DNA of 64,000 bases from Syntrophorhabdaceae bacterium (GCA_963666485.2 CAXXUO010000009.1:433517-497516), one strand, 5' to 3'; shown: positions 31,334 through 60,335, counted from the first letter of the stretch. Notes: generated by a model not told the origin, from the letters alone. Translations and numbers: made by a program.

Positions 31334-31375
31334 CTGTCCCTCCTGCTTCTTGTTCCTATCGCTTCACATGTCGTA

Positions 31376-31439
31376 CAATAACGTCGAGGTCACTGCGAAG
31401 CCGGATCTATCGGCAATCCGGTAGAGCTCCTCGTTGGTC
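31376..31439 (-). other. Integron attC-like site
   Basis: Minus strand GACCAACGAGGAGCTCTAC...GTGACCTCGACGTTATTG, 64 bp, imperfect inverted repeat with an extra base, starting at the stop codon of the upstream gene. Confidence 0.6.
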
Positions 31440-32122: not shown

Positions 32123-32301
32123 CTTATTCTATGCCCAACCTCATAATCGCGCGCGCGGCGCACAGAGAGTGAAATCCGGAGAAACCCTCCCTGATTCCGC
32201 TTGACATTTCCCCTCATCGGGTGCCACGTCGGGTCATCTTTCTTGAACACCAATTCGAAATAAGCACCCTTTTCCCTCATGTGCTGCGCTTTTCATCTCG
32301 T

Positions 32302-37653: not shown

Positions 37654-37672
37654 TGAATCCTCTTATTAATAC

Positions 37673-38488
37673 CTATTTGTAAATTTGAGACCAAACTTCT
37701 GAAGATGGTTGTAATTTGTGAATGATCCATGGACGCATCTGCCTGTCTATCCTGACCGAGTTGGTCTCTTCAATGAGATTGAGAATGGCGTCTGTATCCG
37801 ATTGAACCCAGGAAGCGGCGTCGAACATTCCGCTAACTGAATTAAGGTCGTATGCAGTAACCTGTATTTGACCGGGAAATTCATCTTCGATGATCTGTAA
37901 AATATAAGCTGCGTAAACTCTTGCGTAATTCCTGGCAATTGGCGCCTTACCGCTAACAACCTGCTTTTCCAGTTTTTTCAAAGGATCTATTTTGCCTAAT
38001 GCAACATCGTCATGATAAGTTCTTATTAAAGGACCAATCCGATTCCTACCGGGTCCAAAAATGTTCTTGAGATAGTCCTCAAGCTTGGTCACCGTGAAGG
38101 AAGCACCCAATATATCTCTGCCCCTGACAAATGTCTCATACCATGCCGCTGCACCATGCGAAGGATGACATAAACTGAGGTGCGCGATCCACTGGGTTAC
38201 CGGTTGACTCAGCAAAGCATCTTCAAGCAACACAATTCGACCAAAATTCGTTAGAACAGGATGTCTGATACCGTTCTTGGATTTCAAATCATACTGGATT
38301 AAGCCCATTCCCCTAGCATAATCTATGATTGCCGGCACCTTGCCATTTGATTTTCCCATCGGGATCCCGGTGGCACCGGCTATGTCATGGTAGCTTCCTG
38401 ACAAACCGTTTCCCGCATACTGAAGCAAGCTATTAAGCAGTCGTCTTTCCGGAATAAAAGTTCTATGAAAGTTAATTGGCAATGACAT
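37673..38488 (-). CDS. DUF4007/SspB-like winged-helix protein (second copy)
   Basis: FHRTF..GIPMGK..YARGMGL..LTNFG..D.LL....TQWIAH.L parallels the DUF4007 motifs of CDS 54221-55171. Confidence 0.6.
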   Translation of the reverse strand: MSLPINFHRTFIPERRLLNSLLQYAGNGLSGSYHDIAGATGIPMGKSNGKVPAIIDYARGMGLIQYDLKSKNGIRHPVLTNFGRIVLLEDALLSQPVTQWIAHLSLCHPSHGAAAWYETFVRGRDILGASFTVTKLEDYLKNIFGPGRNRIGPLIRTYHDDVALGKIDPLKKLEKQVVSGKAPIARNYARVYAAYILQIIEDEFPGQIQVTAYDLNSVSGMFDAASWVQSDTDAILNLIEETNSVRIDRQMRPWIIHKLQPSSEVWSQIYK

Positions 38489-41400
38489 TTAGGTCGCACT
38501 CTCCTTACCAATATCTTTGAAACGTGATCTTAAAGATTCGATCTTGATGTGAAATGCTTTCGTCTCGAGCCCCTGCTGAGTGTTCAGCGAAGGTCCTAGG
38601 GAATAACATTCTCCTTTTTTAAGCCTGGAAAGACGTTGTATCCATATTTCAGCTTTTTCATTCGTGGTGTTTTCCAATATTTGGGCATAACTTCGCAATT
38701 CGGTATCCGCGGGCTTAAAGAATAATTTATGACTCGCTTGAAATAATCTGTCTTGTTCATCTTTTTTAAGATTGCTTAGAGTCTGCGTTGCCACAATGAG
38801 GGAGATCCCGAATTTTCTTCCCTCCGTTAGAAATTTACCGAGAGGACTTTCAAGGTCATGATCCAGGTTTTGAATTTCATCGAGTATTATGATCCTGGGT
38901 CTGTCTTTATTGCCCTTACCACGATAATACCAGTATAGATCGATAAGGGTGAATTCCGTGATCAACTTCGATGCATCCTTTAGAAAACCTGCCAGTTGAA
39001 GGATATGACAGCGGGAATTTTGATCCATAAACAAGGTCTCCCAATTATCGCCTTCCTCAGCGCCAAACGGATTCATATCGACAAAAGGCTGGATCTTGCT
39101 TACGACCGTCAAAGAAGATGGATTTTCGTCAACCATTTCTTTGAGTTCTTCGATCAATAAAGGCAAGGTCATTTCATTTCCGTGCGTTTCTATTCCTCTC
39201 TTTATGGCCGTGTAGAGGGCCGATTTTTGCTGGTCGCCAAATTCGTAAACTTCGGAAAAAACCCCGCTAACCCTCTGTGCCGTATTAGACGGGTCTTCCG
39301 GAAGAAGCATTTCGCCGATCATGTCTTCCTGCCGCCTGAAAGGATTTATGGGTAATGGATCCTTTCGTACAATATGTTGAACAGGTTTCAACATCTTTCT
39401 TGTCTCAGTTTCCAGCTGATTGTCATAAAATCCGTTGGTATAGTCCACTATTAAAGAATTTTGGCCGGCCCGACCGAGTTCACATAATAAGGCTTGGATC
39501 GCATACGTCTTTCCCATCCCGGACGTGCCAAATATGAGTATATGCCTGTTCGCTAAGTCCTGGTGACCGAATTCCCAGAACACTTGTCTATTGCCTTGAG
39601 CGCCTTGGCCCAGAAAGATCCTCTGGGGCAATTTCGGCTCAATTGTGCCGCGATACTCGGGTTCGCTAACGTCCGGTTTCTTGTCTGAGATTGATGTCTG
39701 TGAATCGTTGTCCGAAGCACTGCCCGTCTCACCTCCCGGTGCTTGTTGTTTCTCTTCGTTGATTTCTATCGAAGGTTTTATTTCTTTTTCTAGCGTAATA
39801 CTTGAATAATCAAGGCTTTGTTCACCCAAAGGCAAATAGGTATCAAGGTTGTTCAGGCATAGAGATTTTACGAATTGACGGCCGGCGGATATCACCCCTG
39901 CCATCAGAGTGTTTTCGCCTACTTGAAACTCCCAATCGGCGACCCTGGCTATGTTCGATTGATCGGAGTCAGTCCAAAAGGTAACCGCCGCCGCCTTCCA
40001 TTGAATCGTAAAAAAACCATCGCTCAGCCTCTCAAGGGCATTAATAGCATCTTTAAACTGCGGATACTTCACTCGTCCCTTGCTCGCTATCAGGCGTTGG
40101 AGCTGCAGCCACCAATATCGCTGATCGGGCCTGTCATCAATTCCCTCATTCTTACCTTGACGAGGTTTGAAGCAATCTACCAAATGGCTCAGACCACTCT
40201 GAAGCTGTTCTCGGGCCTTTTCAAGATGCGTCTCAGATTCCTGGGCGAGTTTGCACTCGAACAGTTGCGATTCGATCCGGAACTGCCCATCTATTATTGT
40301 GGCCTTCAAACGCAATAGATCTGGTCTGTTATTATTTGGTGACGAATCAAACCAATGCCGAAAGGCATCGAGAGAGACAATCTCGTCACAGAAAGCATCG
40401 GCATCCCTTGGAAGCAATTTTCGCAACAAAGCGTACGAGATATAATCTCTGACGTATTGCGACGGCCCCGTGGCCTTAACGAGGGACAAACCCGCCATAT
40501 GCAGAGATTCGCTGATGATGCTTGATGCCATATTGTTGCTTGCCTCGTGATCCAAAGGCCCCAGTTTCGACGCTATGTGCGACGCAATCTTAGACCGGAC
40601 TTGTGCGATCCTGAAGAAATCCGTCGATATGGTATAGTTATGCTCGCCATGGCTACCGACGCCAGACCCAAATCCGATAATTTCTCTTTGCCGGATACCA
40701 TTATGATCTTCTTTTCCTATTAGCCTTTCATCTACGGATGGGTCGATACACACTACCCAGGTGCTTCTTTCGTGCAGTTTGTCGACCAGTCTTTTCCAAG
40801 GTGCAAAATCGCCTTTTCCCATTACTATGTAATCCTTCTCTGCAACATGCGTCGGCAGCTTCAAGCGTGCCATTACTTGAGAATGCAGGGTGCCTAAGAC
40901 AAATTGGCGATTGCTGATAATCCTTTCGCGTACCCAATCCATACCGCCGCCTACCACTGAGCAACAGGCTTTTTCTAAGACGGGGAACATTCGGAATTTT
41001 CCGCTTGCGTCATACGGCTCAATCTCTTCAAACTTATTTCCCCCCGCCCCTGCACGGACAAAATGGACCAAGAAGGATAGATCAACATTAATTTGGGAGA
41101 TCAGGTTTTCGAACAATGTATGGTCTTTCTGCTGGGTAATGAGGCGGTGAGCAACTGAGATCTTACACCAACTGTAGTAGTCATACTTTGCCGAATACTC
41201 TGCACCAATCCACCTTTCACGCCAAGCACTAACCCATTTTGTCATTGCGGTGTCATCCTGAGTTTCGGCAAAGAGGATGAGCGAAAGAGTGTAAGGTCTA
41301 TCGCCGCTCCTAATTTTTGCCAGTTCGCGCAAATAGGCATCTATACCTGCTATAACAGGTTGGACAGGCCCCCCGCAGTAGGCACTTATGGATAGGCCAT

Positions 41401-43774
41401 CGTCAGCGTGGGCATACAGTGACCGATAGTCTTCCAATACCCTTTGAATAAGTCGAGACTCTCGGGTTTCTTCGAACAAGTCCTCATCCGATATATCATC
41501 CTCGTCGCCCGTATCATAACGAAGAAGAAGTTTCGTCGACAGGCTGGTATCACCGGAGCTATCTTCACCGACTATATGGAAAATTCCGAAACTCTTTACG
41601 TTTGTGTCCAAGATCTGGTCTTCGTTGCGGAGCGTACCGTATATTGGCCATTGTATTTTGGCGAGGTCCATGACATCCGTCCACCGCCTCTCATTAAATC
41701 CTTTTTGGCTAGATACCCATAGCGCTTGTCGTGCCGCAGTTTCGAAACTTTCAGAAAGAAAGGAATGTTGGTGTACGATCATCTCAAGGAGTGCCGGGTG
41801 CAAAGGAGTGATAATTGCTGAAGGCTCGAAGCCCTTCCATATCCACAGGCTTGTCGGGTGATCCTCACGTTCACCCACCATAAAAAATGCCTTGAACAGC
41901 AGGGCGCCCAATCGGCTCGTTTTACACTCGGGATCCACCAGAAATGCTTTGTACGTCTTCCGATAGGCTGCATCCAGTGGACCGAACTTATTATTTAGCG
42001 CCGAAAAGAGGCCTTCTTCATGGGCTTCCTTAATGAAGTGTCCGTAGGCATAAGCAAGTTCCATCAAATGAGAGTATGTCTTGTCGTGCGTGTCTATGCC
42101 GTCGGCGCCAAGAAGATGCACGATATTTTTCGATTCGCTCTCCAAAGCCTGCACCAATATTCGATTTACTTCATCATCATCTTTTGCCAATGAGAGCTCT
42201 TCGCTGTAAGGAATGCAGAAGACGGGCAAGGCATTAATGCGCTTTGAAAGCGCATGTTCATATGCCCAAGAAAACATGGAAGCCATATTACGGTATGGAT
42301 GGTTCTTGGGAATAGGCCAAACGAATTTTCTTGTGACGCCCTTGTTGGGTCCTAAAATAGACACCGTAAATTCCAAAAGGGGTTCGGCTCTAATAGACCG
42401 ATTATAAGCCAGATCACCATCCTCCATAGAAGGGCACAGGGAGCAACTGATTCCTATGGTATCCTCAGGTGTTTCTCTGGGATTAGGTGCGAACGCAAGG
42501 TGTTCTTCAATATAATTATCGAGACCTCCGATCAGCTGTCTTAAAAGTTGGTGTGCGATATCCGGGTCATTTTCTTCGCAGTCATGCCGAAACAAGTTCC
42601 CTTGGATCCTGATCTCTTTGATTGCTTCGCCTGCAATTATCCCCTGTTCTTGCGTCCACCTTTTATATTCAGCCAAAGTTATCCAGACCGATCGCAGAAC
42701 AACTTCAAGGGGCATCCCTGTTAACTTTCTTGTCTTTATTTCCCTGCTTTTTTCCTTTCTTTTCCTAAACCCAAGAATCTCGTCCAAAATGTAGGGAAAA
42801 TCTGAATACATCAAATTTGCTTGTGCATTCGAATCCTTTTTCTCGATGTAACGCTTCAGATCTTCAATCAATTCTTGAATCGTCTTATAGTGACCACCTA
42901 AATCATCGAGATCTACCTCTTCCGCCTTCCCGGTCTCTATTAAGTGCTGCAAATATTGATCAATTTTTTGAATCGCTTTCTTTCGGCCTTGTTTATCAAG
43001 AAAACTTCCATAGTTAAAAAATTCCACGGCGGACTTAATATAGTGGCGAATTCGAACTTTTCTTTTAGCCGACATCAATCCCTTCATAGAGGGAAGTCTA
43101 AAGTACCCCAAACTTTCTACGATAACCCTCATGGCATCCCTGCCATCCTGGGCATGCGAAAGGTCGATGCTTTCCAAAAAAATGCTTATCCGGATAATAT
43201 CGGCAAGACTCGTGTCGACGAGTGACTTGAGTATCTCGTCTATAAAAGCAATGTGATCACTTTCCGCTTCGACAGAAGCCTCCTTGAGCCTTCGTCTTAT
43301 CCAGGGTGAGAACGTGCCTTGAAGCCACTGCTCCCATAATGTTTGGTAATCAAGCCGATAGAAGTCATAGAGACTTGCTTGGTCGGGTACCTGATCGGAT
43401 CCGATCAATACGGTAACCAGGACATCTTCCGTTTGGGGATTTCTTTTTTCGTTTCTCGAAGCTGTAAGATGATTTTCTGCATCATACCACCCGCGCTGCT
43501 CAATCTCCTTGAACAGGGCCGACTCTTCCGGATCGTTGCTTGCTCTCCATAGTTGGCCCAACCTGTATGCCGTTTTTATGATTAACTTGATCCGACAATC
43601 CGGCTTTTTGGTATCGCGGTATTCCTCCAATGCCTCACCAATTGCGAGGACGATCCTTGCTGGGGCAGAAGGCAATACGACTCTGAGCTCCCTTGCGTCA
43701 GTTGACGGGGTCTTCAACATATTCTTGATTTGTTCTAGGATTGCATCTATTACCGAAGAGGAGTAGAAGATCAT
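38489..43774 (-). CDS. SspH/DndH(DptH)-like protein with C-terminal HerA/FtsK ATPase
   Basis: 1761 aa; PLHP motif; PD..ECK nuclease-like motif; NRHILIFGTSGMGKT, LDEIQNL, EGRKFG..ATQ. Confidence 0.75.
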   Translation of the reverse strand: MIFYSSSVIDAILEQIKNMLKTPSTDARELRVVLPSAPARIVLAIGEALEEYRDTKKPDCRIKLIIKTAYRLGQLWRASNDPEESALFKEIEQRGWYDAENHLTASRNEKRNPQTEDVLVTVLIGSDQVPDQASLYDFYRLDYQTLWEQWLQGTFSPWIRRRLKEASVEAESDHIAFIDEILKSLVDTSLADIIRISIFLESIDLSHAQDGRDAMRVIVESLGYFRLPSMKGLMSAKRKVRIRHYIKSAVEFFNYGSFLDKQGRKKAIQKIDQYLQHLIETGKAEEVDLDDLGGHYKTIQELIEDLKRYIEKKDSNAQANLMYSDFPYILDEILGFRKRKEKSREIKTRKLTGMPLEVVLRSVWITLAEYKRWTQEQGIIAGEAIKEIRIQGNLFRHDCEENDPDIAHQLLRQLIGGLDNYIEEHLAFAPNPRETPEDTIGISCSLCPSMEDGDLAYNRSIRAEPLLEFTVSILGPNKGVTRKFVWPIPKNHPYRNMASMFSWAYEHALSKRINALPVFCIPYSEELSLAKDDDEVNRILVQALESESKNIVHLLGADGIDTHDKTYSHLMELAYAYGHFIKEAHEEGLFSALNNKFGPLDAAYRKTYKAFLVDPECKTSRLGALLFKAFFMVGEREDHPTSLWIWKGFEPSAIITPLHPALLEMIVHQHSFLSESFETAARQALWVSSQKGFNERRWTDVMDLAKIQWPIYGTLRNEDQILDTNVKSFGIFHIVGEDSSGDTSLSTKLLLRYDTGDEDDISDEDLFEETRESRLIQRVLEDYRSLYAHADDGLSISAYCGGPVQPVIAGIDAYLRELAKIRSGDRPYTLSLILFAETQDDTAMTKWVSAWRERWIGAEYSAKYDYYSWCKISVAHRLITQQKDHTLFENLISQINVDLSFLVHFVRAGAGGNKFEEIEPYDASGKFRMFPVLEKACCSVVGGGMDWVRERIISNRQFVLGTLHSQVMARLKLPTHVAEKDYIVMGKGDFAPWKRLVDKLHERSTWVVCIDPSVDERLIGKEDHNGIRQREIIGFGSGVGSHGEHNYTISTDFFRIAQVRSKIASHIASKLGPLDHEASNNMASSIISESLHMAGLSLVKATGPSQYVRDYISYALLRKLLPRDADAFCDEIVSLDAFRHWFDSSPNNNRPDLLRLKATIIDGQFRIESQLFECKLAQESETHLEKAREQLQSGLSHLVDCFKPRQGKNEGIDDRPDQRYWWLQLQRLIASKGRVKYPQFKDAINALERLSDGFFTIQWKAAAVTFWTDSDQSNIARVADWEFQVGENTLMAGVISAGRQFVKSLCLNNLDTYLPLGEQSLDYSSITLEKEIKPSIEINEEKQQAPGGETGSASDNDSQTSISDKKPDVSEPEYRGTIEPKLPQRIFLGQGAQGNRQVFWEFGHQDLANRHILIFGTSGMGKTYAIQALLCELGRAGQNSLIVDYTNGFYDNQLETETRKMLKPVQHIVRKDPLPINPFRRQEDMIGEMLLPEDPSNTAQRVSGVFSEVYEFGDQQKSALYTAIKRGIETHGNEMTLPLLIEELKEMVDENPSSLTVVSKIQPFVDMNPFGAEEGDNWETLFMDQNSRCHILQLAGFLKDASKLITEFTLIDLYWYYRGKGNKDRPRIIILDEIQNLDHDLESPLGKFLTEGRKFGISLIVATQTLSNLKKDEQDRLFQASHKLFFKPADTELRSYAQILENTTNEKAEIWIQRLSRLKKGECYSLGPSLNTQQGLETKAFHIKIESLRSRFKDIGKESAT

Positions 43775-43775
43775 A

Positions 43776-45413
43776 TCAACCTCCCTTCCGGCCGCTCAAG
43801 CTTTGGTCCAACGAGAACGGATTTTGAACAAGCGAACATGCATCGGAAAGATGGACTAAGAAACCGGAAGCCTGCAGCATGGCCATAAGCCAGCTGCTCC
43901 CCATCGTCCCACCGGTATCGATCCGTGGAAAATCGCACCATGACAAGGCATTGGCCAACTGCTCCCCTTCTATGGCAATTCCATAATGGGTATAGAGGCT
44001 CCTCTTGAAGTCCTCATACGTCCTGCGCGAGCCGGGAGGTATCATTGTCAGGACAAGGTATCGAAGGATCCTTTCGTTGAAGACAAAACGCGCTCCCGGC
44101 CCTCTCTTTGGCACTATAAACCCCAATCTTTTTCCGATGGAGAGGAAGAGTTTATGGCCGTAGCTAGTGTCCGCTTCATCATAAAGTTTATCTAATTTGG
44201 TCTTCCGGCTTTTTTGGGCATTTTCATAAATTTCTTTTGTCCGCAGGGCCTGCTGAATAAATGTCAACAGTATGTTCATATTCCGCTGGGAGAGTTGCTT
44301 AATGGCACGCTCCGTTCCCTCCGGATCGGAAATTATCCAGGCAAAATTGAGTGGTACAACATTCTCGTTCTTCTGGATATTTGGACTGCAATGCCTCATT
44401 GACTGTGCGCAGAGGCTTCTCAATATTTGAAGCCCGCAACCCACCATAAGCAGCTCAATGCGTTCAATCGGGTCAATAATGGCACTGCATAATCTATTAA
44501 GCTCTACGGCAAAAAGATATCCCTCCCGCCAACTCTCTTCCGGACACCAACCGCACTCGACAAAACGTTCGCTTCGATTTGTGACACCCCAAGTGCTACC
44601 ATCAATTGTGTCAATCAAATCAACAATGGCGTCCAATACGTCTGGAACCTTAGCGGTAATAGCGCGTAACTCCCCATTTAAAGATGCCAAAAGTTTTTGC
44701 GGGTTTTTTTCATCTTCTGTAAGATCATAAGAAGTCACGAAATTATCTAATTGAGGATCCCGTTTACGAAATGCATTACAGAGTTGTAAATATAGCAGCT
44801 CGCCACCGCGTGCCATAAAAATTCGTTTATCATATGCAAAATATTGAATGGCTTGATCCCATGATTTAACACCATCCCGCGTCGCTACCGTTTGCTCCCA
44901 TATAGCTTCAGAGCATAGGAAAGACTTACTTAAAGGATAAAGAGTCTGCGCACACCAAGTACGGTCAACGCCAACACCCTGGAAACCTAGATATAAATTC
45001 TCGAGACTCTTTAGGACATCTCTTTTGTCAACCCCTTCTGTCCTAATCACATTTTCTAGCTTACGAAGGAGATCCTTGTAGTGTTGTTTATGACTTTCAT
45101 GCCTACTGTCAATCCTCGAAGCTCCTAAGAATGCAAACAGTTTTAGGTTGAGACGTATTGGCACTCTATACTCCAAGCTTTTCCCAATGGGCCAACCCTG
45201 AATTTGCTCCCAAGAAGGTAACGAATTATCAAAGATTGAAATGTTATCAAGCCTTTTAGGAGAATTAAATATGAGAAGCAATTCTGCAAGATGCTCCAAT
45301 ATAGTCTGATCTGTAAAAAAACGTTTTCCGAAAAGTTGAATCCCTGGATTTGCATCACTTCCTTTTACTTCATAATCAAGCTTTACTTTGGGAAAAGCTT
45401 CCGGTAATGGCAT
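43776..45413 (-). CDS. SspG/DndG(DptG)-like protein
   Basis: Lies between F and H; C-terminal wHTH-like YGI..L..SGFL.HLSDACSLVQNPF. Confidence 0.65.
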   Translation of the reverse strand: MPLPEAFPKVKLDYEVKGSDANPGIQLFGKRFFTDQTILEHLAELLLIFNSPKRLDNISIFDNSLPSWEQIQGWPIGKSLEYRVPIRLNLKLFAFLGASRIDSRHESHKQHYKDLLRKLENVIRTEGVDKRDVLKSLENLYLGFQGVGVDRTWCAQTLYPLSKSFLCSEAIWEQTVATRDGVKSWDQAIQYFAYDKRIFMARGGELLYLQLCNAFRKRDPQLDNFVTSYDLTEDEKNPQKLLASLNGELRAITAKVPDVLDAIVDLIDTIDGSTWGVTNRSERFVECGWCPEESWREGYLFAVELNRLCSAIIDPIERIELLMVGCGLQILRSLCAQSMRHCSPNIQKNENVVPLNFAWIISDPEGTERAIKQLSQRNMNILLTFIQQALRTKEIYENAQKSRKTKLDKLYDEADTSYGHKLFLSIGKRLGFIVPKRGPGARFVFNERILRYLVLTMIPPGSRRTYEDFKRSLYTHYGIAIEGEQLANALSWCDFPRIDTGGTMGSSWLMAMLQASGFLVHLSDACSLVQNPFSLDQSLSGRKGG

Positions 45414-48400
45414 TAGTTGGTTACCTCCAAAATGCCTTCATTTATATTGAAACTCTGGCTCTTGAACTGATGGTTTAATTGCAACCGAACGAGCATCATG
45501 TCGCCCCTGTTTTTATCCGTCGTACTCTCCAAGAGCGCTAATTTGAACTTTTCCAATCGATCAATATAGAACGTTTTTAATTGTTGGGCTATTTCTCCCT
45601 GATGCCTGCTATGAACGTAGTCGAGAAACGGTAGATCGAGATCAATACTGCAGTCCTTTCTGGAGAAAAGGGGTCGATATTGTATTATTCCGATCCGCAA
45701 ATCGACCGGTTCTAAGTATAGTTGAAATTCATCAGCGGAAATTTTGGTGAGCACGATCTGGGCAGTCTGTCTGATATCGTAATTCCTACGATTCAGTGTA
45801 ATAAACAGCGTTTCCTGGTCTCCCGCTGTTTCCGGGAGCCGCAAACCGGTAAAATGCTCTTGAAGGATATGGATTATGCCCCTTCGTAATCGCCGCAGTT
45901 CTAATTGCGATCGTATTTTACCGGTTTTCTGCCATTCCACATATGTTTCCAGTAAGGGCGAATCGAGAAATGTTGATAAGAAATGCTTTCCCAACTCAGC
46001 GTCTTGAAAGGCCCCATGAAAGTAAATCAAGCGCCGGACCTGCAACCGTGCCAAGGATGGCTGCAATTTATCATTCTTCGTCCCCCTGCCCGCATTCCGG
46101 AGGTACAGATAGATCTCCTCCAATGTCGTATTGGCAAAGGATACCGGTTGGGAAGATTCTTCGATCCAGAGCATTCGATCTAAACCTGGATTGGGCCTCG
46201 ATCCCGATTCCAACGTACGCGCAAACCTTACGGCATTTATTTGGTTCGAGGTGATATCCTCTTCATCGCCGGAGTCTCCAAAAAACCTGTTAAAGAAGAG
46301 GTAATGCCGCAACGGGGGCCGTAGCGCAAGGGAAGATATCTCTTGTATGGAATAATAATCCAGGCCGGCCGTGATCGCATACGCCAGGTGTTCCGTCATC
46401 TGTCGGATCGTTAAACGATAACCGTATTCATAGAGCCTTCGGTAAAATAACTCAATTCCCTTGAGCGCGGCTGATTTGCTTGCGCACAACATTCTTACGT
46501 TCGCATAAATAGGGCATTTATCCCTGCATTCCAGGTTATCGCACTTCTGCCAGCGTTCTTCGGCGAGCATCTTTTCGAACACCTTGATCGTCGTATCAAT
46601 ACTGTCAACCCGGCCAATATTGATTATGTGAAAACTTTTTTCGCGGCATGTTATGTCTTTCGGCTCCACGCTGTCGAGGGCGCCGAGTAGATCGCTCTGT
46701 AGCGTAAACCACTCAGTCCTGTCTCTGGCAAGACCTTCGAATGCATTGAGCAGACTACCCGTATTGGAAACTATTAAATAGCGTTGATCGTCTGAACAGG
46801 CTTTTTCAAGGAGATCGTGGCGGTCTTGTTCGGTGAGTTCGCTCATATCCTTAATCAGGGTGACGCTAACGCCTTTGTATCGAACCATCTCCTTAGCCTT
46901 CATGTCAGAAGCAAGTGGTTGATCAAAGGGTATTCCGTTGAATCGTTTAAAGATCTCAAGGCAGATAGTCGATTTTCCATCACCCGCGTTTCCTGTAAGG
47001 ATCACGTGAGAACCATTCTGATCGGTAAGGCGATCAAATATGTAATCGGTAACTGGCAAGGGGACATGGATATGACAGAAGTTTGGATTTCTGGCTTGAG
47101 ATTCAGCGAGGGCATTTTCATTGGCTCCTGAAGCATTATGAAGCGAATTGAGATACGCCACGAATGGATTGCCAAGTTCGTCAGGCCGAGGTAGCGATAC
47201 TACAGGCTCCGGCGGTGGAACTTTTTCGGGCTCAATAAACACCAGGTTAAGGTCAGTAGAAGCTTCCTGCTCGTCCGTCGCCGATGATTCCTGGACCGCT
47301 TCCATGAGCTCTCTCTGCATCCACTCGACATTTTGAAAGCGTTCTTCCGCAGTCGTCGATATCGCCTTAAGCATCCAACTCCTTAAGGCATCCGGAACAT
47401 CATCGCGGATATCCTCAATATTTTGAAAACCCTCGGTTAGTATTTCGGAGGGATGGATACCATAGAGCCATTCAAAAAGAGTCACTCCTAAGGCATATAG
47501 GTCGCCATTTTCCGAAAACTTGATATCTCCACCCCGTAACAGATCGGGAGCAATATATTGTGCAGTTCCCTGAAACTGGTCAATACGAGGCGGTCCGGCT
47601 ATTCCAAAATCGATGAGCACGGCACTCCCGTCTTGTGTAACGATAATATTGTCCGGTTTGATGTCACAATGAAGGAGCGGGCTTGCTTTGCCGTCGATCT
47701 TTCGTTCGTGGAGGGCATATAGGCCCTGCAGCAATGATGAAGCTACCTGTTTGAATTCATTAATGTCAGGTCTTTCCTGACATTTGATAAAGTCTCTCAT
47801 GACCCGCCCGTCTATGTAATTGAGTTCGAGAAAAAAACGTTCTTTCTTCCAATGACCTATTCTTTTTGCATGGACAAGGTAGGGCGAATAGACTGCGCTA
47901 GTGACAGTTTCTTCATTTTGGATTCTCACGAGGGGAATATCATTGTTAAAAACTTTTAGGGCAACAAGGATCATTACCAACGGTCCTTGCCAAATACACC
48001 TGAGATACGGGCCCCTCTGCAAGCAGCCCGCTCGATGGTAAAAACATCGTATTCCTCTCCCAGGTCAAACTTCCGGTTTGGATCTCTTTCTTCAAGCCCA
48101 ACCTGATTTTTCGGCTTCAAACCAAGCGCTTCTCGTGTCTTTTCGGCATTTTGGATCCGCTCGTTTCGATCAAGGATGACTAGGCTTTCTAAGACTTCAA
48201 GAATCTCTGTTGAAATATCCCTTTCCTTAAGCTTTTGCAGGGCGGCTTCCGTCATTCGGCCGTTTGTTATTTCAAGCTCCGTCGAAATCTTGAATGGCAA
48301 GCTATGGGTAAGTAGTTCAAAAAGGACTACTCCTACGCTGAACAGGTCGGTACGTTCGTCTATATCGCTGCCGTGGTATACCTCGGGCGCAGTATAAGCA

Positions 48401-49990
48401 TCCCGTTTAAGTTTCATTAGATCCGGTATAACGGTTACATGTTCGCCAATTTCTAATTGATAGGCTAGGTCGAAATTCATGAGTTTTGGCCTTCCGTTGG
48501 CCATGAGTATATTTTCTGGCTTGATCGCCCTGTGAATAATGTCCGCCTTGTGGACAACTGTTAAGGCATCAAGTAATTCCTGGCAAATTCCGAGGGCATC
48601 TTCAATGGGAAGAGGGCCCTCAAGGTCATTGAGCAGGTCCCTTAACGTTCCCTGCTCCGACCAATCGGAGCCTTCTATGATAAGACCGGTCTCGTCCGGT
48701 ACGGGCCAGACCTTGAGTATATTGGGGTAATCACCAATCTTGGCAATTGCGTCCAAGGTATTTCTGGCGCGTGCTTAAAAAGCGTTCTTTCTCATGGACA
48801 TTGCTTCCTTGAGGAGGAAGAAAGACCCGAAATCTTTGCGACCTGCGAATCTTGCCTTCCTTGGGTCGTACCACATACTCGACGAGATCCGGGCGTTCAG
48901 TCAGCCGCTCGATTATTTCAAATCCTGGGAATACATGCCCTTTTTCTCTTTTACTGTGCTGCAGGGACTCAAGGTAATGGCCGACCCGCTCTATTTTTAG
49001 ATGATCTAACTTTTCTTCTTTTGCCCTTCGTTGGTGCTTTAAAAAATCGATAAAAGTATCAATCGAACCGAACGAAGGGCAATGCTTTTCCGTTTTCGAA
49101 GGCGAAGCACCTTCAACTTCTGCTTCAGGATTGGTTAAGACAACAACCGATTCAACCCATATATCAGGGAAAGTTCGGAACTGATGCTGGTAAATTCCCT
49201 TGAGGATTTTTGCCTTAAAGAGATTTGCGCGATGGGGATCCTGTCGATAGACAACATCATCTTTAATCCAGTTGTAAGGGGCAATCCGAATTTTCCCTGA
49301 CCAATGCTTTAGCTCAACAAGATAAATACCCTGCGGGGAAATTATTATGAGATCACATTCGTAATAATCGTTCGTTTGGTTATCGTAAATCAGAAGGTTT
49401 GAAATAATATGACCAAGAGCATAACGTTTTACCTCAGACCCAATTGCTTCGAGAGCGATATTTTCATGCCAGAATATGCTTTTGCTTTCAGTGTCTTTCT
49501 CTGCTTTTTCTAAGGATTTAAGCTGTATCTGTATCTGTGTTGCGAAGAGTGTTCTAATTTCAGCATTTCTCAGCAATTCATACAACTCGTCGTCTAGGTA
49601 CGCGTATTCAATTGTTTCGAGTATTCTGTTTTTAGTAAACCGATAATGAACAACCTTCGAATCTCGATATTTTTGATAAAGCGTCTCCGCTTCACTCTTA
49701 ACTTTATGATGCCAAAAACCATCAGAGGTGAGATGATAATAGGGATATTCCAGCAGACCTAGATCGCTATCAATGATGTCTTTGTACTTATTCCAAGTAA
49801 AATCGAATAATGGCTCAATTTCTACAAATGAAAAGTTATTCTTATGATCGACGTCTTTTTCCAAGAGCTCAATTATGGATAAAATTAAAACTAACTTATG
49901 TGGTCTAGCGACGTCTCCTTTTTTCCAGGTTCTCAAAGAATGAAGTTTTTCTAAGTATTTCTGCGCGACAATTTTCTGCTGATCATTCAT
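45413..49990 (-). CDS. SspF/DndF-like multidomain protein: SBD-NERD-pseudokinase-kinase-P-loop (three +1 frameshifts)
   Basis: Joins ORFs 48731-50062, 47974-48756 and 45413-48022; PHKLVL/YPYYHL, ECDL..VELKHWSG, HRAIKPEN, HCDIKPDN..DFG, TGNAGDGKST. Confidence 0.78.
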
Positions 49991-50810
49991 TTGCTTTGGC
50001 CTCTTTACTCTTGGTTCTACATTGATATGTGCCATGTAAATTGTTAGAACACAAAATATCAATCAACTTCTTTTTTTCGTGGAAATCGCGGGGCATATCA
50101 TCTTGAGACTTATCCGTGTCCTTTAAGTCTCTTAAAAATTTGGGCTTACCTTTCTCTCCCGTCCTCCATGTATATACTCGACAATCTGAATGTTTTTCCT
50201 CATACTGGCAAGCCTTTTCAAACAAATCAGGATGATGTCTTCGAAGCCCAATCCAATCCTTTTCGCTTTGATAAAAGCAAAAAAAACAGCCGGATCTTTT
50301 TCTCCACGAATAATACCCGGGCATTCCCAATCCTGCTGTTCGTAAAATATTTTCGACGTCGGAGAGAATTATCCCGTCATCAACAAACGGATGGCGCGGG
50401 ATAATATTGGGAATGGTCGGTTTATAACCTTCACGTTTTTCGTCTGCACGCAATGCTACATAACTGTAGACTTTTTTGTCGCCAACATAGGCTTCGAAGG
50501 GCTCTAATTTCAATAATCTAGTGCACCATCTATTTTGTGGTGAAGGAAGTACGCCTTTAAAATATTTAAGCCAGTAATCGAAGTTTCTACGCGGCTTTAG
50601 TACATTGATATCTACATTTAGAACCGCTCGAATCCTATTTAAATACTTATAGGTCTCAGGAAGCTCACAACCACTATCCGTGAATACATATTCCATTTGT
50701 AGTTTCGGATATTTTTCCTTCATATAAATTGCAAGAGCAGCGCTATCTTTGCCCCCTGAAAGCGCTAGAATATGATGCTCGTGTTGGTTGGAACAGTTAT
50801 TTATGTTCAT
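49983..50810 (-). CDS. PAPS-reductase family protein (SspD/BrxP-like)
   Basis: LSGGKDS, DSGCELPETY, RWCTRLLK, RSGCFFCFYQ. Confidence 0.88.
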   Translation of the reverse strand: MNINNCSNQHEHHILALSGGKDSAALAIYMKEKYPKLQMEYVFTDSGCELPETYKYLNRIRAVLNVDINVLKPRRNFDYWLKYFKGVLPSPQNRWCTRLLKLEPFEAYVGDKKVYSYVALRADEKREGYKPTIPNIIPRHPFVDDGIILSDVENILRTAGLGMPGYYSWRKRSGCFFCFYQSEKDWIGLRRHHPDLFEKACQYEEKHSDCRVYTWRTGEKGKPKFLRDLKDTDKSQDDMPRDFHEKKKLIDILCSNNLHGTYQCRTKSKEAKANE

Positions 50811-53800
50811 CCCGACCCCTCACTATCCTCTCTGCAAGAACCACAAATAACGCCTCCAATTCCCGTTTCGATAGATCGTTCAATCGATGGGCTGTTTTCG
50901 TTGCAGTCCCCTGGTCCGCAGGCTTCATAACGATTTTAAGTATGTGACCGTCAGGTGCCATGACACCTACCACCTTTGAGCCGGGGTCAGCTACAATGCC
51001 GCGTGAAATCATTCCTTCCAGGTAATGTATCTTGTCCGCATAATCGTGCATGGCTACTTCAAAATAACCGATATCATTGTCCCCCCAGCTATCCAGAGGA
51101 TTCTTCATTACGATCCCGGCGATACCCTCAAGCCATTGATCTGCCTTTTTGTATTCTCTAAGCATTGCCGACAAAACTTGTTTGAGGTCCACGTCTCGGC
51201 AGGCAGAAAGTAAAGGCTTCGCGCGCTTCCGCAGGGCATGCCGCAGGCCTTCGATGTCTCCATCGAAAGAGAACGCTTTCTTGACTATCTGTTCGACATT
51301 ATCGGATAATTTCTGGTAAGCTTCATTGAGTTCGAGAAGAGAATTTCCCAATTTTTTTTGAAGATCGGATTTCCAGTTCACGGGAACATGTTCAGCGTGT
51401 GGTTCATCGTTGTCAATACCGATCGCGCGCGGTATATCGGCAAAAAGCAGCTGCAAGGGATCCGTAGCATTTGCAATGGCAGTCCGGACTAATTGAGCTT
51501 CCTTGGATACAGTGCGCGTAAAAAGAGAATATTTCGGCAAACCATCAATGAATCTTACCAATGGCGTAACAATGCTCAGTAATGTAGCGTTCCTCGCGTC
51601 ATTTGCCGTATCGTCATTCTCCGTTTTCAAGACGGCATTATATGCGTCGAAAAGCTCTCGATGTATGCCTTGATTCTTAAATCGTTTGACCGTGAAAATA
51701 TCGGGCCTTTTAAGCAGCAGGGCTATTTCTGTTTCGTCGATAAAAGGGATATAGGTTCCGTCACGGAAAAGTGCTATTTCATCCGCATTTACTAATAGAA
51801 AAAAAACAATGTAGAGCGGGACCGGGCCCTCGCGTAATCCAAACGGAGGACCTTTCAATACCGCAAGTATCTCTTCGATTTTAATGCCATCAAGGCTATC
51901 AGCTGTTATCATAGACGAGATCTTTTCCCAGAGGGGGAAAAGATCGGAGGTCTTATCAGGTGCTCTGAACTGCCATACTCCGCGTTTAACTTCTTTATGA
52001 AATCCATTAGCTAAGAACAGCGACCTATATATGGCCACTTCCGGTCCAAAACCCTCCATTGCAAGGGCTGGCTTTTGTTGGCCCGCCAGCATCGCTTCTG
52101 CAAGTTCTCTTCGCGCCATTGCGGCAGACCCGGAAAGCCGGTCCTGGTTAATCATCTCCATTTTAATATTTGGACATTGCGAATACCAAATATCGCACAG
52201 GTCCGACATAATACCCGAGAGCTCCCGGTAAGATCCTAGAGATCTTTTTGCTCCATTAACGAACCATTGAATTTTGGTAGAACCCGGATGAAATAAGCGA
52301 CTTACAAAAAGCCTGAGCTGCGTTTCCGAAGCGTGTACTCTATAGCGGGCTTCTTTTCTCGCAACACCGTCCCGTTGAAGCTCTGCTGCTTCGTTCAGGA
52401 CGGCTAGAGCGGCAGCGTGCTCAATGGCCAGCTCTTTGATCTGGTTTTCGTAGGGTACATAAGCAACGATCAAGGGTCTATTATCGGAACAAGAAGGTGG
52501 GATCTCCAATCTCCCCTTATCATGACCATAGCTATAGATCAAGAGCCCATCATATCCTTCTTTGGCACTAAGTTGTTGTTTATGGATGTCCGGGAGCGCC
52601 GTCCATCGAGCTTCGAATTTTCGCACCGTTCCCGTCACATAGGAATGACGGGAAGCTATTACGGGGTCAAGGGGAGCTATCCACTGCAATATGTCTTCAA
52701 GCGGTCTTGCAGCCAGAGCAGCTTTCTTTTCCCGAACGGCTCCGAGAATATCAAAATCCGATCCTTCCCAAAGCCTATATTCCTTCGCATATTCCCGATA
52801 AAGTAATTTCCCCCTGTCAGCCAGGTGATTCAATTCAGCCTCAAATTCACCGTGTCGCCCGCGGGTCTCGCCTAACGCTATACTGAGTACCTGCTTTCTA
52901 GCGGCCAACCCTAAAGGTTGACCAATAAGGTTAAGGATGCCTACCGTTTTTAAGATCTTTTGGCTTAACGGGGAATCGAGGTTAGAACCTTCGATGATTT
53001 CGTGAATCTCTATCCATCTTTGAGATTCCGCCCTTTCGATAAAGGATGTAGTAACGGCTGAAAAAAAGTAATGGTACAGAAAGTCAAGTCCTAGCTCTGG
53101 GAGGCGTTGAGAGTTGCTCACCCAATTGGTCTCAAGAAAAGATGATAGAGAATACGGATCCTTTCCATATATGAACGAAAAAAGCGTCCTGTCATTTTGG
53201 GCAAATTTTCGGCACAATTCAGGCAAAGCAATAACAACGAAAGGGTGGAGGGGATAAAGATCAGCTATAATTTCTTCGTTAATTGCTTGACCCGCCGGAA
53301 GCTGAAGCTTGCTAAGGGCCACATGGTAACGTCTCGCCCAGGACTTTATAGCATTGCTCAGCGCGGGGTTAGTCTTCTGCGAAAGACAAGATCTCAGTAG
53401 AGATATCATCTCAGGTGCGGATTCGAGAAATAGAACATCCTCGAAACGACCTTGTATCTTGCTCCATTCGAGGCGCTGCTGAGTGGTAAGCCCTGAAGCG
53501 TATTCCTGAAAAGCCTGGTGAAGGCAGACGCAAAGGTAAGTCCCCTTCATCTCTGAGAGGACCTGCAACATATATATGTCGCCTTGGTCGGGATACTGTG
53601 CTAGATATTCCAGGTTTTTACCAAATTCGTCCAACACAACCAAAAGCGGCAATTGGAGCCGATCGCGAACCGAAGCGAACAACCTGGCTACGGCAGTTGT
53701 CTCTGGGACCGCCTTTTTTTCAAGTAATTTTACTTCTTTTATGATCTGTGACAAAAGCTTGGAATTGTCCTCGTCCACCACTCGGCTGATCACAGCTCGA

Positions 53801-54213
53801 TGTAAACCCCGGACCAAGGAACGGTTCAAGGGTTCGTATGAAGCTGTCACTGGAACACGGAAAAATCCGTTTCCATTTTTTAACGACCCAATTCCTTCCA
53901 AAAAAGAAGCGCTTAAAGCAGGGTCTTTCTGGGCAAGTTTCTTCCGTGCCAATGCTGTAGCAGGTTCCTTTTCATTGCCGCACAATGCCAGAAGGAAATT
54001 AGCAAAAGACGATTTACCCATCCCATAAGGGCCGGTGAGAGACCAAGACGAAATCCTGCGGCCCCCGAGGGCAGACACAAAGCGAGCTATAGTTTCTGTA
54101 GCCTTTGTAGTCAACCGATACTGCTCTAAACTGGAAATATGATTTTGATCCCTTTCTAAATTAACCGATCGGGCAAGATTTACGTTTGGGAAAACAAAGT
54201 CTGAAAGCAACAT
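50797..54213 (-). CDS. SspC/BrxC-like P-loop ATPase
   Basis: RSVNLERD, TGPYGMGKSS, DEFGKNLE, EWSKIQGRF, YPLHP, AQNDRTLFSF, PPFGL. Confidence 0.8.
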   Translation of the reverse strand: MLLSDFVFPNVNLARSVNLERDQNHISSLEQYRLTTKATETIARFVSALGGRRISSWSLTGPYGMGKSSFANFLLALCGNEKEPATALARKKLAQKDPALSASFLEGIGSLKNGNGFFRVPVTASYEPLNRSLVRGLHRAVISRVVDEDNSKLLSQIIKEVKLLEKKAVPETTAVARLFASVRDRLQLPLLVVLDEFGKNLEYLAQYPDQGDIYMLQVLSEMKGTYLCVCLHQAFQEYASGLTTQQRLEWSKIQGRFEDVLFLESAPEMISLLRSCLSQKTNPALSNAIKSWARRYHVALSKLQLPAGQAINEEIIADLYPLHPFVVIALPELCRKFAQNDRTLFSFIYGKDPYSLSSFLETNWVSNSQRLPELGLDFLYHYFFSAVTTSFIERAESQRWIEIHEIIEGSNLDSPLSQKILKTVGILNLIGQPLGLAARKQVLSIALGETRGRHGEFEAELNHLADRGKLLYREYAKEYRLWEGSDFDILGAVREKKAALAARPLEDILQWIAPLDPVIASRHSYVTGTVRKFEARWTALPDIHKQQLSAKEGYDGLLIYSYGHDKGRLEIPPSCSDNRPLIVAYVPYENQIKELAIEHAAALAVLNEAAELQRDGVARKEARYRVHASETQLRLFVSRLFHPGSTKIQWFVNGAKRSLGSYRELSGIMSDLCDIWYSQCPNIKMEMINQDRLSGSAAMARRELAEAMLAGQQKPALAMEGFGPEVAIYRSLFLANGFHKEVKRGVWQFRAPDKTSDLFPLWEKISSMITADSLDGIKIEEILAVLKGPPFGLREGPVPLYIVFFLLVNADEIALFRDGTYIPFIDETEIALLLKRPDIFTVKRFKNQGIHRELFDAYNAVLKTENDDTANDARNATLLSIVTPLVRFIDGLPKYSLFTRTVSKEAQLVRTAIANATDPLQLLFADIPRAIGIDNDEPHAEHVPVNWKSDLQKKLGNSLLELNEAYQKLSDNVEQIVKKAFSFDGDIEGLRHALRKRAKPLLSACRDVDLKQVLSAMLREYKKADQWLEGIAGIVMKNPLDSWGDNDIGYFEVAMHDYADKIHYLEGMISRGIVADPGSKVVGVMAPDGHILKIVMKPADQGTATKTAHRLNDLSKRELEALFVVLAERIVRGRDEHK

Positions 54214-54220
54214 GATTGCC

Positions 54221-55171
54221 TCACCTCGATGAAGAGCCATAATGAACTTCAAGTAACTGCCAGTATAATTCTCGCGCGTCTCGTGTAAACTGAAGTTGTT
54301 GGTAACCCATAGATTCCACGAAATCTATATCTTCATGTGATCGAGCTGCCTGATCGAGATACCTTCCAGCCTCCGTTTCGGAGACCTTAAATGCGACACC
54401 CGGCGAATTATAATCAAAACAGATGCGGTGAAGGGATAAGGTCCTCTGAGTCTCCGCTTGCGCATTCTGCGCATAAGACAAGCAGGCCGCTGCAAAAATA
54501 TCTTCGGGAAGAGTCTGCTTTTCCCCGATCTCGAATCGAAAACTATTAGCTTCTTCCGCTTTTCTCATAATTCCCAACATGCTAAACGGGCTCTCGATCC
54601 CGAAAGCAGTATTATCTGATGCAGGAACATACATCCTGATTATACACGAGCCATCTTTTTCAAAAGAGCTCTGAGACAGTTTACGGAGTTTCTCATAGTT
54701 CTGCGTGGCAGCAATCAGGGCGTTACTCAAGTGCTTCGGCTCAAAATACGGAAGAAGCACATGGTTAAAACACACCGGCCATGACGCCGCATGAAAAGGA
54801 GGAATGAAAAGCTGCCAATGAAGCAGCCAGAGGCTCGCGACGTCCTCAAGGAACGGATCCCAACCATCGTCATCCAGAAGCTTATCTCCCAATCGGGTAG
54901 GCCGCAAACCTCCCTGTTGCCCCTTTTGCTCTTGCCCGCTTAAGTATTCGAGTAAATGAAAAGCAAGGCACCAAAAGCGGATAGAACGGACCATATTCTT
55001 ACCAACCCCAAGCCGTTCAATTGCATCGGGTGCATTGAAAACAAAAGGGTCTTTCTTGGCCTCATCATAGCCCTTTTTAAGCCAGCCATACCTTGGGGTA
55101 AATGTCTCATGTCCCCCGACCCTGCCAATATCAACCTGTTCTCTTATGTTAGCATCCGTATTCATTAACAA
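54221..55171 (-). CDS. DUF4007 family protein (SspB-like)
   Basis: GHETFTPRYGWLKKG, LGVGKNMVRSIRFW, DPFLED..SLWLLHWQL. Confidence 0.88.
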   Translation of the reverse strand: MLMNTDANIREQVDIGRVGGHETFTPRYGWLKKGYDEAKKDPFVFNAPDAIERLGVGKNMVRSIRFWCLAFHLLEYLSGQEQKGQQGGLRPTRLGDKLLDDDGWDPFLEDVASLWLLHWQLFIPPFHAASWPVCFNHVLLPYFEPKHLSNALIAATQNYEKLRKLSQSSFEKDGSCIIRMYVPASDNTAFGIESPFSMLGIMRKAEEANSFRFEIGEKQTLPEDIFAAACLSYAQNAQAETQRTLSLHRICFDYNSPGVAFKVSETEAGRYLDQAARSHEDIDFVESMGYQQLQFTRDARELYWQLLEVHYGSSSR

Positions 55172-55191: not shown

Positions 55192-55530
55192 TTAGAGACG
55201 CCTTTCATCCCAATATCGAATTATTGCCGCTATAGCTGGTGCATCCCGGTGAGGACATGCCCCCCAGTGACTCAACCCATAGGACTTCGTCAAGTATCGC
55301 GCCGATTGCGGCAGGGTTTTCCACCTTTCAAAAATGATCCTGATATCAATGTATTTTAAAGTGTAGGATTTTTCTTTACTGTTGACGATAGTAATCGATT
55401 TCTCTCTCTTATTATAGAGGGCCCTAAAAGGTATTTTTTGAGCCAATGTACCAAACGTTTTGGGTTCGATAAGGTTTTCCGATACCCAATTTACGAAATC
55501 GTCAAAATTAATTTCCTCTAAATCAAGCAA
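55192..55530 (-). CDS. Hypothetical protein upstream of the PT operon
   Basis: 112 aa ORF, TTG start after G-rich RBS, 20 bp before the DUF4007 gene. Confidence 0.55.
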   Translation of the reverse strand: MLDLEEINFDDFVNWVSENLIEPKTFGTLAQKIPFRALYNKREKSITIVNSKEKSYTLKYIDIRIIFERWKTLPQSARYLTKSYGLSHWGACPHRDAPAIAAIIRYWDERRL

Positions 55531-55637
55531 TGCCAGCCCCCCCCAAAATAAATCTACATTTTACTCAACGGATAACACCCCAATCAATAATACCACAGCT
55601 ATATTGACAACATCACGTCACTATACCGAAATATGAA

Positions 55638-58346: not shown

Positions 58347-58365
58347 TCTTCTATATCATTTCCTT

Positions 58366-58950
58366 TCAATCAACCTGTACTGACCAACCGCTACCGTTTC
58401 TCGTTAAATCTGACCCAGGATTGGTCTTGGCAAATGTCATCGCGTCTTCGAATACACTAAAATATACGACAGTTGGTCTTGTGGTCATCCTTGCGTCCGG
58501 CGATACTAAAATGTGCGCCTTGTCCGCAAGAACGATTTTACTAGTATATTTTGGCCCGTATAGTGGGTGTCCACATCCGCAAGCACCGCAATGATAAAGA
58601 ATCCATCCACATATATTACATTCCGCATCAATGTTTGAATCAAGGTCTAACCCACAGTTATAGCAGTGCACTTCCCGCCTCCCCTTATTCGGGTCCCGCA
58701 TTCGCACACCACAATAGGGTATATTACGTTCTTCGAGAAATTCTTTGTGATATTGGATCAATGATTCTGGACCACGGTCCAGTTTGATAAGTTGCCACGA
58801 GGCATCCGTTAAATTAAGGGTTGTTTTGCTATGTTTCGAAAATACTATGTCTACATGCCCATCTTCCGCGACATGAAGAATTCTCCCCACACCCCATTCG
58901 AGGGCTTCCGGATGCCTCACTAAATCATTTATGTTAAGATTTAGTTTCAT
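58366..58950 (-). CDS. DUF3553-like SH3 domain plus Cys-rich (Zn-finger) protein
   Basis: VRHP..EWGVGRI; CYNC..CNICGW..CGACGC. Confidence 0.65.
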   Translation of the reverse strand: MKLNLNINDLVRHPEALEWGVGRILHVAEDGHVDIVFSKHSKTTLNLTDASWQLIKLDRGPESLIQYHKEFLEERNIPYCGVRMRDPNKGRREVHCYNCGLDLDSNIDAECNICGWILYHCGACGCGHPLYGPKYTSKIVLADKAHILVSPDARMTTRPTVVYFSVFEDAMTFAKTNPGSDLTRNGSGWSVQVD

Positions 58951-60102: not shown

Positions 60103-60335
60103 ATGTCCTTTCTTGCCGTTGCCCGGGACCGCATCGGCTCTGGAAAAGTAATAGGAGACCATGGAGATGCGAAATGGGGGTGTTCTTTGATATCCGTTTT
60201 TCTCTTAAATGTCTGAAACAAATAAGACATAATGTTACCATATATGAACAAATGAGTACTATTTGTCTGGCAGAAGAACGCGATCTCTGGTGCGCGAATC
60301 ACAATATCGGACAGGATTTCTTGGGGGAAATAACC

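Follow-up and report, generated by a model that had tools for sequence, protein, structure and literature searches.

A sulfur-binding domain at the N-terminus of an SspF-type protein from a Syntrophorhabdaceae bacterium, and its apparent exchange together with the end of sspD

The SspFGH module damages DNA that lacks phosphorothioate (PT) modification; in PT-free cells it is toxic, and SspBCD relieves this toxicity (Wang et al., 2021, PMC8092258), so that PT acts as a self mark for modules of this type. How SspFGH senses PT was raised as an open point in the discussion of that paper. In SBDHga, the sulfur-binding domain (SBD) of the Hahella ganghwensis enzyme Hga, the PT sulfur is held by a cavity of H25, K26, L75, P76 and H79; the SBD of HNH enzymes is a winged helix-turn-helix (wHTH), and a clade with the arrangement 'SBD + unknown domain + kinase' has been described (Hu et al., Nucleic Acids Research 2023, PMC10602919). 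A wHTH-NERD-inactive/active kinase-DndF layout has also been published (Rakesh, Aravind and Krishnan, Nucleic Acids Research 2024, PMC10853773), and the parallel between the NERD-pseudokinase-kinase block and PglW was repeated in a 2026 BREX paper (PMC12839542). Here we analysed a stretch of 64,000 nucleotides from a Syntrophorhabdaceae bacterium (GCA_963666485.2, CAXXUO010000009.1:433517-497516; the window), in which an ssp operon encodes an SspF-type protein, F', that begins with an SBD. How SspFGH and DndFGH separate PT-marked self from foreign DNA is the question on which this domain bears.

The F' gene is read from an ATG at 49990 on the minus strand that overlaps the sspD stop codon (sequence ATGAATGA), with AAGAGG 9 nt upstream. 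In the translation from this position, the two strings on which the preliminary description of this DNA had based its proposal of an SBD are present, LRTWKKGDVARPHKLVLILSII at residues 19-40 and LEYPYYHLTSDGFWH at residues 80-94, with four residues, not three, between KK and RPHK. When residues 1-170 were compared with all PDB chains by phmmer, SBDHga (8H0L) was the single match (E 4.2e-16, residues 14-155). The NCBIfam family NF045808, 'phosphorothioated DNA-binding restriction endonuclease', matched residues 13-108 (E 3.9e-9); its score stays under the whole-protein cut-off because only the SBD is common to both proteins. A Pfam scan of the SBD residues returned nothing beyond a chance-level FANC_SAP match; the precomputed matches of some homologs include PF26340. 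In the HMMER alignment, H31, K32, Y82, P83 and H86 of F' occupy the places of H25, K26, L75, P76 and H79 in the SBDHga sulfur cavity, and this is the HK and (Y)P..H pocket that had been proposed. These residues fit the hydrophobic SBD cavity, formed by His-Lys/Arg on helix A2 and by x-Pro..His/Ala on helix A4, the proline being central. The basic pair of loop L1 is K23 K24 in F' and R17 R18 in SBDHga; R70 and N72 of SBDHga are not kept. Among 96 full-length homologs, the pocket region is retained at P30 (92), H31 (86), K32 (85), P83 (95), H86 (86) and W93 (95). Position 82 is Tyr in only 49 of the 96, and the residue there splits the SBDs into two classes. A profile built from 83 relatives reached the ScoMcrA SBD (5ZMO) at E 0.076 only, spanning the full domain and placing HK on HR and YP on YP; the E of 1.6e-53 that the same profile gave to 8H0L arises by construction, the 8H0L sequence being included in it.

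For the fold comparison, residues 1-196 were modelled with AlphaFold2 (mean pLDDT 87.8 and pTM 0.79, from a 47-row alignment), and the model was searched against the PDB with Foldseek. Ranks 1-12 were exclusively solved SBDs: 8H0L (E 2.8e-9, TMt 0.82-0.85), SprMcrA (7CCJ/7CCD/7CC9, TMt 0.61-0.65) and ScoMcrA (5ZMO/5ZMN/5ZMM, with TMt 0.67 for 5ZMO). Beyond rank 12 came Cdc6/ORC and MarR winged-helix proteins with E >0.08. The predicted fold is a winged-helix core with extra helices. An unrelated fold, named at the outset as a possible refutation, is thus not borne out by the predicted model. Residues 1-165 of F' (49496..49990, minus strand) are confirmed as a true SBD, far beyond chance, and from the sequence the domain is predicted to bind PT DNA.

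Behind the SBD, Pfam and PADLOC placed, in order, a NERD nuclease, an inactive kinase, an active kinase and the SspF P-loop core, when F' is read through the three frameshifts discussed below. The NERD domain, of the PD-(D/E)xK type, covers residues ~192-286 (49133..49417; Pfam PF08378, E 1.9e-15), and its catalytic residues are nearly invariant among 113 full-length homologs (D213 and K228 in 113, E226 in 112). The pseudokinase (48148..48931; Pkinase E 3.6e-26 on a 260-aa open reading frame, ORF) has HRA for HRD (Asp in 0/113), NFD for DFG (N in 106/113) and Arg in place of the beta3 Lys (113/113). The Ser/Thr kinase that follows (47258..48040; Pkinase E 1.9e-22) is of the active type, with VALK, HCDIKPDN and DFG, and K678, D775, N780 and D793 are each kept in 113/113. 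The SspF core, comprising the P-loop and a C-terminal region, ends the protein (45413..47199; PADLOC SspF PDLC02795, E 1.5e-40); its Walker A is GNAGDGKST in the window, and GxAGDGK[ST]T is invariant in the 113 homologs.

The operon has the order sspB-C-D-F'-G-H on one strand (minus), with PADLOC matches for all six genes, and the PT writer genes sspB, sspC and sspD lie directly upstream of F', in agreement with the operon context first proposed. They are sspB (54221..55171; Pfam DUF4007, E 1.6e-82; PADLOC SspB, E 1.8e-94), sspC for a BrxC-like ATPase (50797..54252; PADLOC SspC, 1051 bits) and sspD for a PAPS-reductase-like ATP pyrophosphatase (49983..50810; PADLOC SspD, E 2.3e-94). Downstream are sspG (43776..45413; PADLOC SspG, E 4.4e-21; syntenic in related loci) and a gene for an SspH/DndH-like protein of 1761 aa that has a HerA/FtsK ATPase at its C-terminus (38489..43774; PADLOC DndH, E 1.2e-63, and SspH, E 3.1e-18; Pfam DUF87 and TrwB). 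No cysteine desulfurase gene (SspA/IscS) was found inside the operon, and the remainder of the genome was not searched for one; in some relatives (such as L006), a gene for a class V aminotransferase (SspA) separates sspD from F'.

The preliminary description had proposed a count of SspF homologs that carry this domain. We assembled 108 NERD-kinase loci, 29 from species genomes and 79 from metagenomes, which were fetched by NERD-derived patterns and not by the SBD. The sspB-C-D-F'-G-H order recurs among them wherever there is enough flank, in loci labelled Bacillota, Desulfobacterota, Chloroflexota, Armatimonadota, Planctomycetota and others. An SBD stands ahead of NERD in 80 of the 108 (a few of these being out of frame or interrupted by a stop) and is missing from 23 assessable loci, 3 of which have only ~550-700 bases upstream of NERD; another 5 are too near a contig end to judge. 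Where at least 2.5 kb of upstream sequence was available, sspD was found within 2.5 kb in 62/64 SBD-bearing versus 15/19 SBD-less loci, duplicates and kin included. Of 120 longer relatives listed, 102 have the SBD and 18 do not, in a search that leans to SBD-bearing proteins through its query, SBD plus NERD. The SspF core was also searched by itself (594 aa). Among the best 120 of 1011 matches, 80 are proteins of 705-799 aa in which the SBD directly adjoins the SspF core, NERD and kinase both being absent, and 40 are cores without an SBD (583-1019 aa).

SBDs in general sit mostly on HNH nucleases, as the preliminary description had said (94% of 1722 homologs sorted; Hu et al., 2023, PMC10602919). 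The F' SBD was used in a HMMER scan that gave 469 representative clusters at E 0.001 or better. The partners of 54 of the 55 mid-length proteins among the best 150 were classified by PADLOC, the window's own 419-aa ORF being left out: the SspF core directly in 15, a DUF4007/SspB-like domain in 13, PDC-S36/PD-T4-1-like in 6, HNH in 6, NERD/kinase pieces in 4, PDC-S31 in 1 and nothing found in 9. Ssp components are thus the usual partners of the SBD in this branch of the family. The 13 fusions to a DUF4007/SspB-like domain (415-464 aa; P0178, P0191, P0192, P0206, P0216, P0220, P0223, P0228, P0234, P0242, P0249, P0253 and P0254) join the reader with the DNA-binding family of the writer. As a separate observation, the ~9-10 kb examined at four loci with SBD-less NERD-kinase-F genes (L019, L021, L029 and L108) contained no match to sspD upstream of F; the first three also have no sspB or sspC match, and L108 has an upstream sspC match. 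The F-G-H modules of these four loci may function without a linked PT writer.

Comparison with close relatives revealed an unusual pattern of divergence. Three metagenome loci (L031, L032 and L036) encode a relative of F' (P0002) in an operon that is 96% identical to the window in SspB, 95% in SspC, 91% in NERD, 93% in kinase 1, 97% in kinase 2, 95% in the SspF core, 76% in SspG and 97% in SspH; identity is 59% in SspD and 32% in the SBD. At the DNA level, similarity is 95% up to 50620, then none, and returns at 49402 with 93%. The replaced stretch (window 50620..49402) runs from SspD residue ~63 to F' residue ~196, at the SBD/NERD junction. The same was seen in three further pairs: L050/L051 versus L041 (SspD 64%, SBD 29%, flanking parts 86-95%), L053 versus L039 (SspD 69%, SBD 30%, flanking parts 91-100%, SspG 82%) and L026 versus L090 (SspD 74%, SBD 28%, flanking parts 94-97%). 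The backbones of these three further lineages are <80% alike in NERD; a fifth pair, L049/L072, was too diverged to be counted. Three pairs have their left breakpoint at SspD residue ~63-74 and one (L026/L090) has it at ~193; on the right, the breakpoints lie at F' residue ~165-196. In close pairs that keep their SBD (72-88% identical), SspD is 85-97% identical. SspG is 76-77% identical between L031 (14506-16140) and the window (43776-45413), in operons otherwise 95-97% identical, pointing to another tract of exchange, separate from the first, in the G subunit.

The exchanged domains belong to the two SBD classes. In class I, to which the window SBD belongs, the motif is ..LE[YHF]P[FY]YHL.. and cavity position 82 is aromatic; in class II it is ..Px[ATNI]PFFHL.. 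and the residue at this position is small. In the three swap pairs for which both members were aligned, one is class I and the other class II (L053 is absent from the alignment). Judged by these comparisons, the SBD and the adjoining end of sspD have evidently been swapped between two ancient SBD classes in four independent lineages, and as far as our literature search shows this cassette exchange is new. With the L75Y substitution, SBDHga bound a narrower range of PT sequences (Hu et al., 2023, PMC10602919). By analogy, class I and class II SBDs may differ in the PT contexts that they accept.

Does the sspD part travel along for a functional reason? The SspD type matches the SBD class in 30 of 33 operons in which sspD and F' abut. 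Identities of the SspD C-part correlate with those of the SBD at r 0.65, versus 0.51 with NERD, and adding the SBD raised R2 from 0.29 to 0.50 (528 locus pairs). Co-adaptation of SspD and the SBD was nevertheless set aside. The class match fails in operons where sspA separates the two genes: in 14/14 of these the sspD part is nearer the class II-linked type, by small margins, and 4 have a class I SBD. Moreover, L026/L090 swapped only the part of SspD beyond residue ~193. Hitch-hiking by linkage is therefore the simpler reading, and a functional reason is doubtful. A predicted complex of SspD and the SBD scored 0.00, which bears neither way.

We propose that the SBD gives the F'-G-H machine a direct reading of the PT self mark and holds it off marked DNA, a reading to which we assign a probability of about one half. 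Host DNA would be marked with PT by SspBCD and a cysteine desulfurase whose gene lies outside the operon, elsewhere in the genome, and F' would be translated together with sspD. The SBD would dock the Rp-PT sulfur in the hydrophobic cavity of H31, K32, Y82, P83 and H86 while nearby basic residues grip the DNA backbone; recognition of PT would hold or switch off the F'-G-H machine on marked (self) DNA. DNA without PT would give no hold signal and would be attacked by the FGH restriction activity, with NERD and the kinase as added effector or signalling arms. We infer the direction of this switch by analogy with Vibrio SspFGH. The preliminary description had PT, as a self mark, gating the NERD nuclease or the kinase. 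Such gating is plausible, but the choice of NERD or kinase as the partner of the SBD was probably mis-aimed: the primary partner looks like the F core, because the 80 SBD-bearing cores of the 120 closest have neither NERD nor kinase.

Several observations weigh against the proposal that the SBD holds F'-G-H off marked DNA. The 23 assessable NERD-kinase-F loci have no SBD ahead of NERD, and none was found elsewhere at these loci in the 333 kb searched; most of them still lie beside sspBCD. Canonical SspF profiles begin after the SBD position. FGH can therefore discriminate by PT without an SBD, and the domain is an accessory, not indispensable, since SBD-less NERD-kinase-F loci exist. According to Hu et al. 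(2023, PMC10602919), all SBD proteins characterised so far cut PT DNA instead of sparing it, so the switch could work in the opposite direction. The N-terminal additions of DndF have been regarded as suicidal back-up effectors (Rakesh et al., 2024, PMC10853773).

A stronger version of the proposal would make the SBD both the missing PT sensor of F-G-H modules and a swappable reader cassette exchanged with the sspD end; we regard this version as rather doubtful. If it holds, selection keeps altering how the self mark is read, possibly driven by phage proteins that block the reader or by retuned PT contexts that count as self. The recurrence of the cassette exchange itself suggests that the reader is a target of selection.

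Among the alternatives, the one that survives best has PT as an anchor or activator, as for SspE. The SBD would park F'GH on host PT sites, where PT stimulates it, and SspH (HerA/FtsK-type) and the nuclease would then act on incoming unmarked DNA, PT being a required cofactor and not an off-switch. SspE, another Ssp effector, is indeed active only with PT (Wang et al., 2021, PMC8092258), and the SBD is linked to an F core whose Walker A is invariant. Vibrio SspFGH, however, is toxic precisely without PT (PMC8092258), and with the SBD-bearing variant judged by analogy to it we consider an activating role unlikely.

It is less likely still that SBD plus NERD form a type IV-like, PT-dependent nuclease comparable to Hga (SBD plus PD-(D/E)xK), silent until the kinase/SspF sensor detects infection and then cutting the cell's own PT-marked chromosome in abortive infection. 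The closest solved relative of the F' domain is the SBD of that PT-dependent enzyme, the NERD catalytic triad is kept, and suicidal roles have been proposed for NERD and the kinase in DndF and PglW (PMC10853773, PMC12839542). SBD-less NERD-kinase-F proteins are common, however, and two thirds of the closest SspF cores have the SBD without NERD; aiming NERD is therefore not the main role of the SBD. We also think it very improbable that the SBD reads foreign PT patterns, as a second, type IV-like layer against phages or plasmids with a non-host PT motif. SBDs do bind differing ranges of sequence, with an influence of pocket-residue size (L75Y in SBDHga; PMC10602919), and the two classes that differ at position 82 are exchanged between otherwise near-identical operons. 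Against this stand the tight, nearly universal linkage to the host's own writer genes and the single SBD and single ssp operon found in the genome.

The fusion of the SBD to the N-terminus of F had been claimed outright. It holds when three frameshifts are read through and does not hold in the sequence as deposited, where the ORF stops after 419 aa. The deposited minus-strand ORFs are 50062/49990-48731 (443/419 aa; SBD, NERD and the start of the kinase), 48756-47974 (260 aa; kinase without the N-lobe) and 48022-45413 (869 aa; kinase and SspF). The best of the 120 longer relatives listed, P0001, is an intact protein of 1523 aa, 87% identical to F' and colinear with it; most of the 120 have 1490-1560 aa. 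A tblastn search with P0001 found a single colinear protein spread over three frames of the window, with junctions at EKERFL/ARARNTLDAIAKIGD, FTIER/LLAEGPVSQVYLARTVGND and P/VALKVF, each of which requires one base less than the window has. Contigs built from three public sequencing runs (X1, X2 and X3), all from one sample near-identical to the window and possibly its source, were examined at these places. Raw reads of a further run with the same species label (X22) gave none on this stretch, and runs X4-X17, with 0.40 of the sampled words, do not enter the comparison. Those of X1 and X2 (depth 10.4 and 13.3) cover 47600-49200 with 0 mismatches and exactly three one-base deletions (47966, 48027 and 48775), leaving the F' frame uninterrupted. 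The extra base at 48775 lies in a short T/A run and splits F' between residue ~405 and the pseudokinase (omitted in X1 and X2, depth 10-13). The one at 48027, in a G run in the Gly-loop region of the active kinase, is omitted in X1, X2 and X3, and the one at 47966, in a TT just before VALK of the active kinase, is omitted in X1 and X2. The contigs of X3 (depth 2-2.7) are broken at 48775 and at 47966, where one ends. Contigs may mask minority variants, such as a frameshifted subpopulation. With the three extra bases absent from X1 and X2, the frameshifts most likely stem from erroneous insertions in the deposited assembly, and F' is probably an intact gene with a single ORF of ~1524 codons. The least likely alternative of all is that F' is a decaying pseudogene from which only the 419-aa SBD-NERD stump is made, since the three frameshifts, although they fall within 810 bp while 16 kb of neighbouring long ORFs are intact, are all one-base insertions in short homopolymer runs that the X1 and X2 contigs lack. 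Other genes of this 10-contig genome may hold similar consensus errors.

A search of 40 related species genomes, of which 19 belong to the same genus, 5 to the same family and 16 to the same order, did not find the ssp operon, and it looks like a horizontally acquired island. Two proteins are encoded directly after sspH, at 33400-38488 (minus strand): one of 271 aa is DUF4007-like (Pfam E 4.3e-5), and the other, of 1417 aa, weakly resembles SspC/BrxC (PADLOC E 1.2e-14). The pair may form another module of the island or belong to the ssp system; in L029, too, the H gene is followed by a DUF4007-like match. Upstream of sspB, 55192-58950 (minus strand) encodes a DinG-family helicase of 902 aa (PADLOC type IV DinG, E 1.5e-93; NCBIfam DinG, 1.9e-88), a 112-aa ORF without a family and a 194-aa protein with a DUF3553 match. 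Farther out, at 25505-33369 and 60174-60923, the defence-island neighbours are proteins of 1041 aa (Fic/HSP70-like), 571 aa (Macro domain) and 355 aa (Schlafen AlbA_2), together with an AbiEi-like regulator.

The domain layout of F' is already published, and the window adds no new kind of system. A closer account of an SBD on SspF was not found in the literature searched, in which SBD and SspF appear together in a review only. What is added here is the frequency of the SBD-SspF fusion, the recurrent swaps between class I and class II, and the gene breakage as a probable assembly artefact. As a component of the F subunit that recurs widely in this clade, the sulfur reader offers an experimental handle on self/foreign discrimination by FGH.

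Set beside the described systems, the F' SBD is nearest to SBDHga, with the same predicted fold, 28% sequence identity, the cavity residues H25/K26/P76/H79 as H31/K32/P83/H86 and an L1 basic pair in both. SBDHga differs in its cavity L75, where F' has Tyr as ScoMcrA does. Hga has a PD-(D/E)xK type IV restriction partner that cuts PT DNA and lies outside any ssp operon, whereas the partner in F' is NERD-kinase-kinase-SspF, beside PT writer genes. The SBDs of ScoMcrA (5ZMO) and SprMcrA (7CC9) are alike in predicted fold and their HR/HK and YP motifs align, but their sequence similarity is marginal, and these proteins carry HNH with or without SRA and restrict PT DNA. In SspFGH of Vibrio anguillarum FF-93 (PMC8092258), homologues of F, G and H follow sspBCD as in the window; the canonical SspF profiles span 525-607 positions and start only beyond the SBD, the NERD domain and both kinases of F', and the window H matches DndH models better than SspH at its C-terminus. 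The DndF variants have the same domain order as F'; the excerpted text (PMC10853773) calls the first domain a wHTH, states no SBD or sulfur pocket and does not use the Ssp F/G/H names, its supplement may label further, and it reads the additions as back-up suicidal effectors. PglW (BREX type 2) and MAD6 (MADS) share the NERD-pseudokinase-kinase block with F' (PMC12839542), and the block in F' matches PADLOC PglW (4.9e-16) and NCBIfam MAD6 (2.2e-30 and 9.1e-43). By the description in the excerpted text, PglW and MAD6 differ from F' in having no SBD and no SspF core and in belonging to methylation-based systems.

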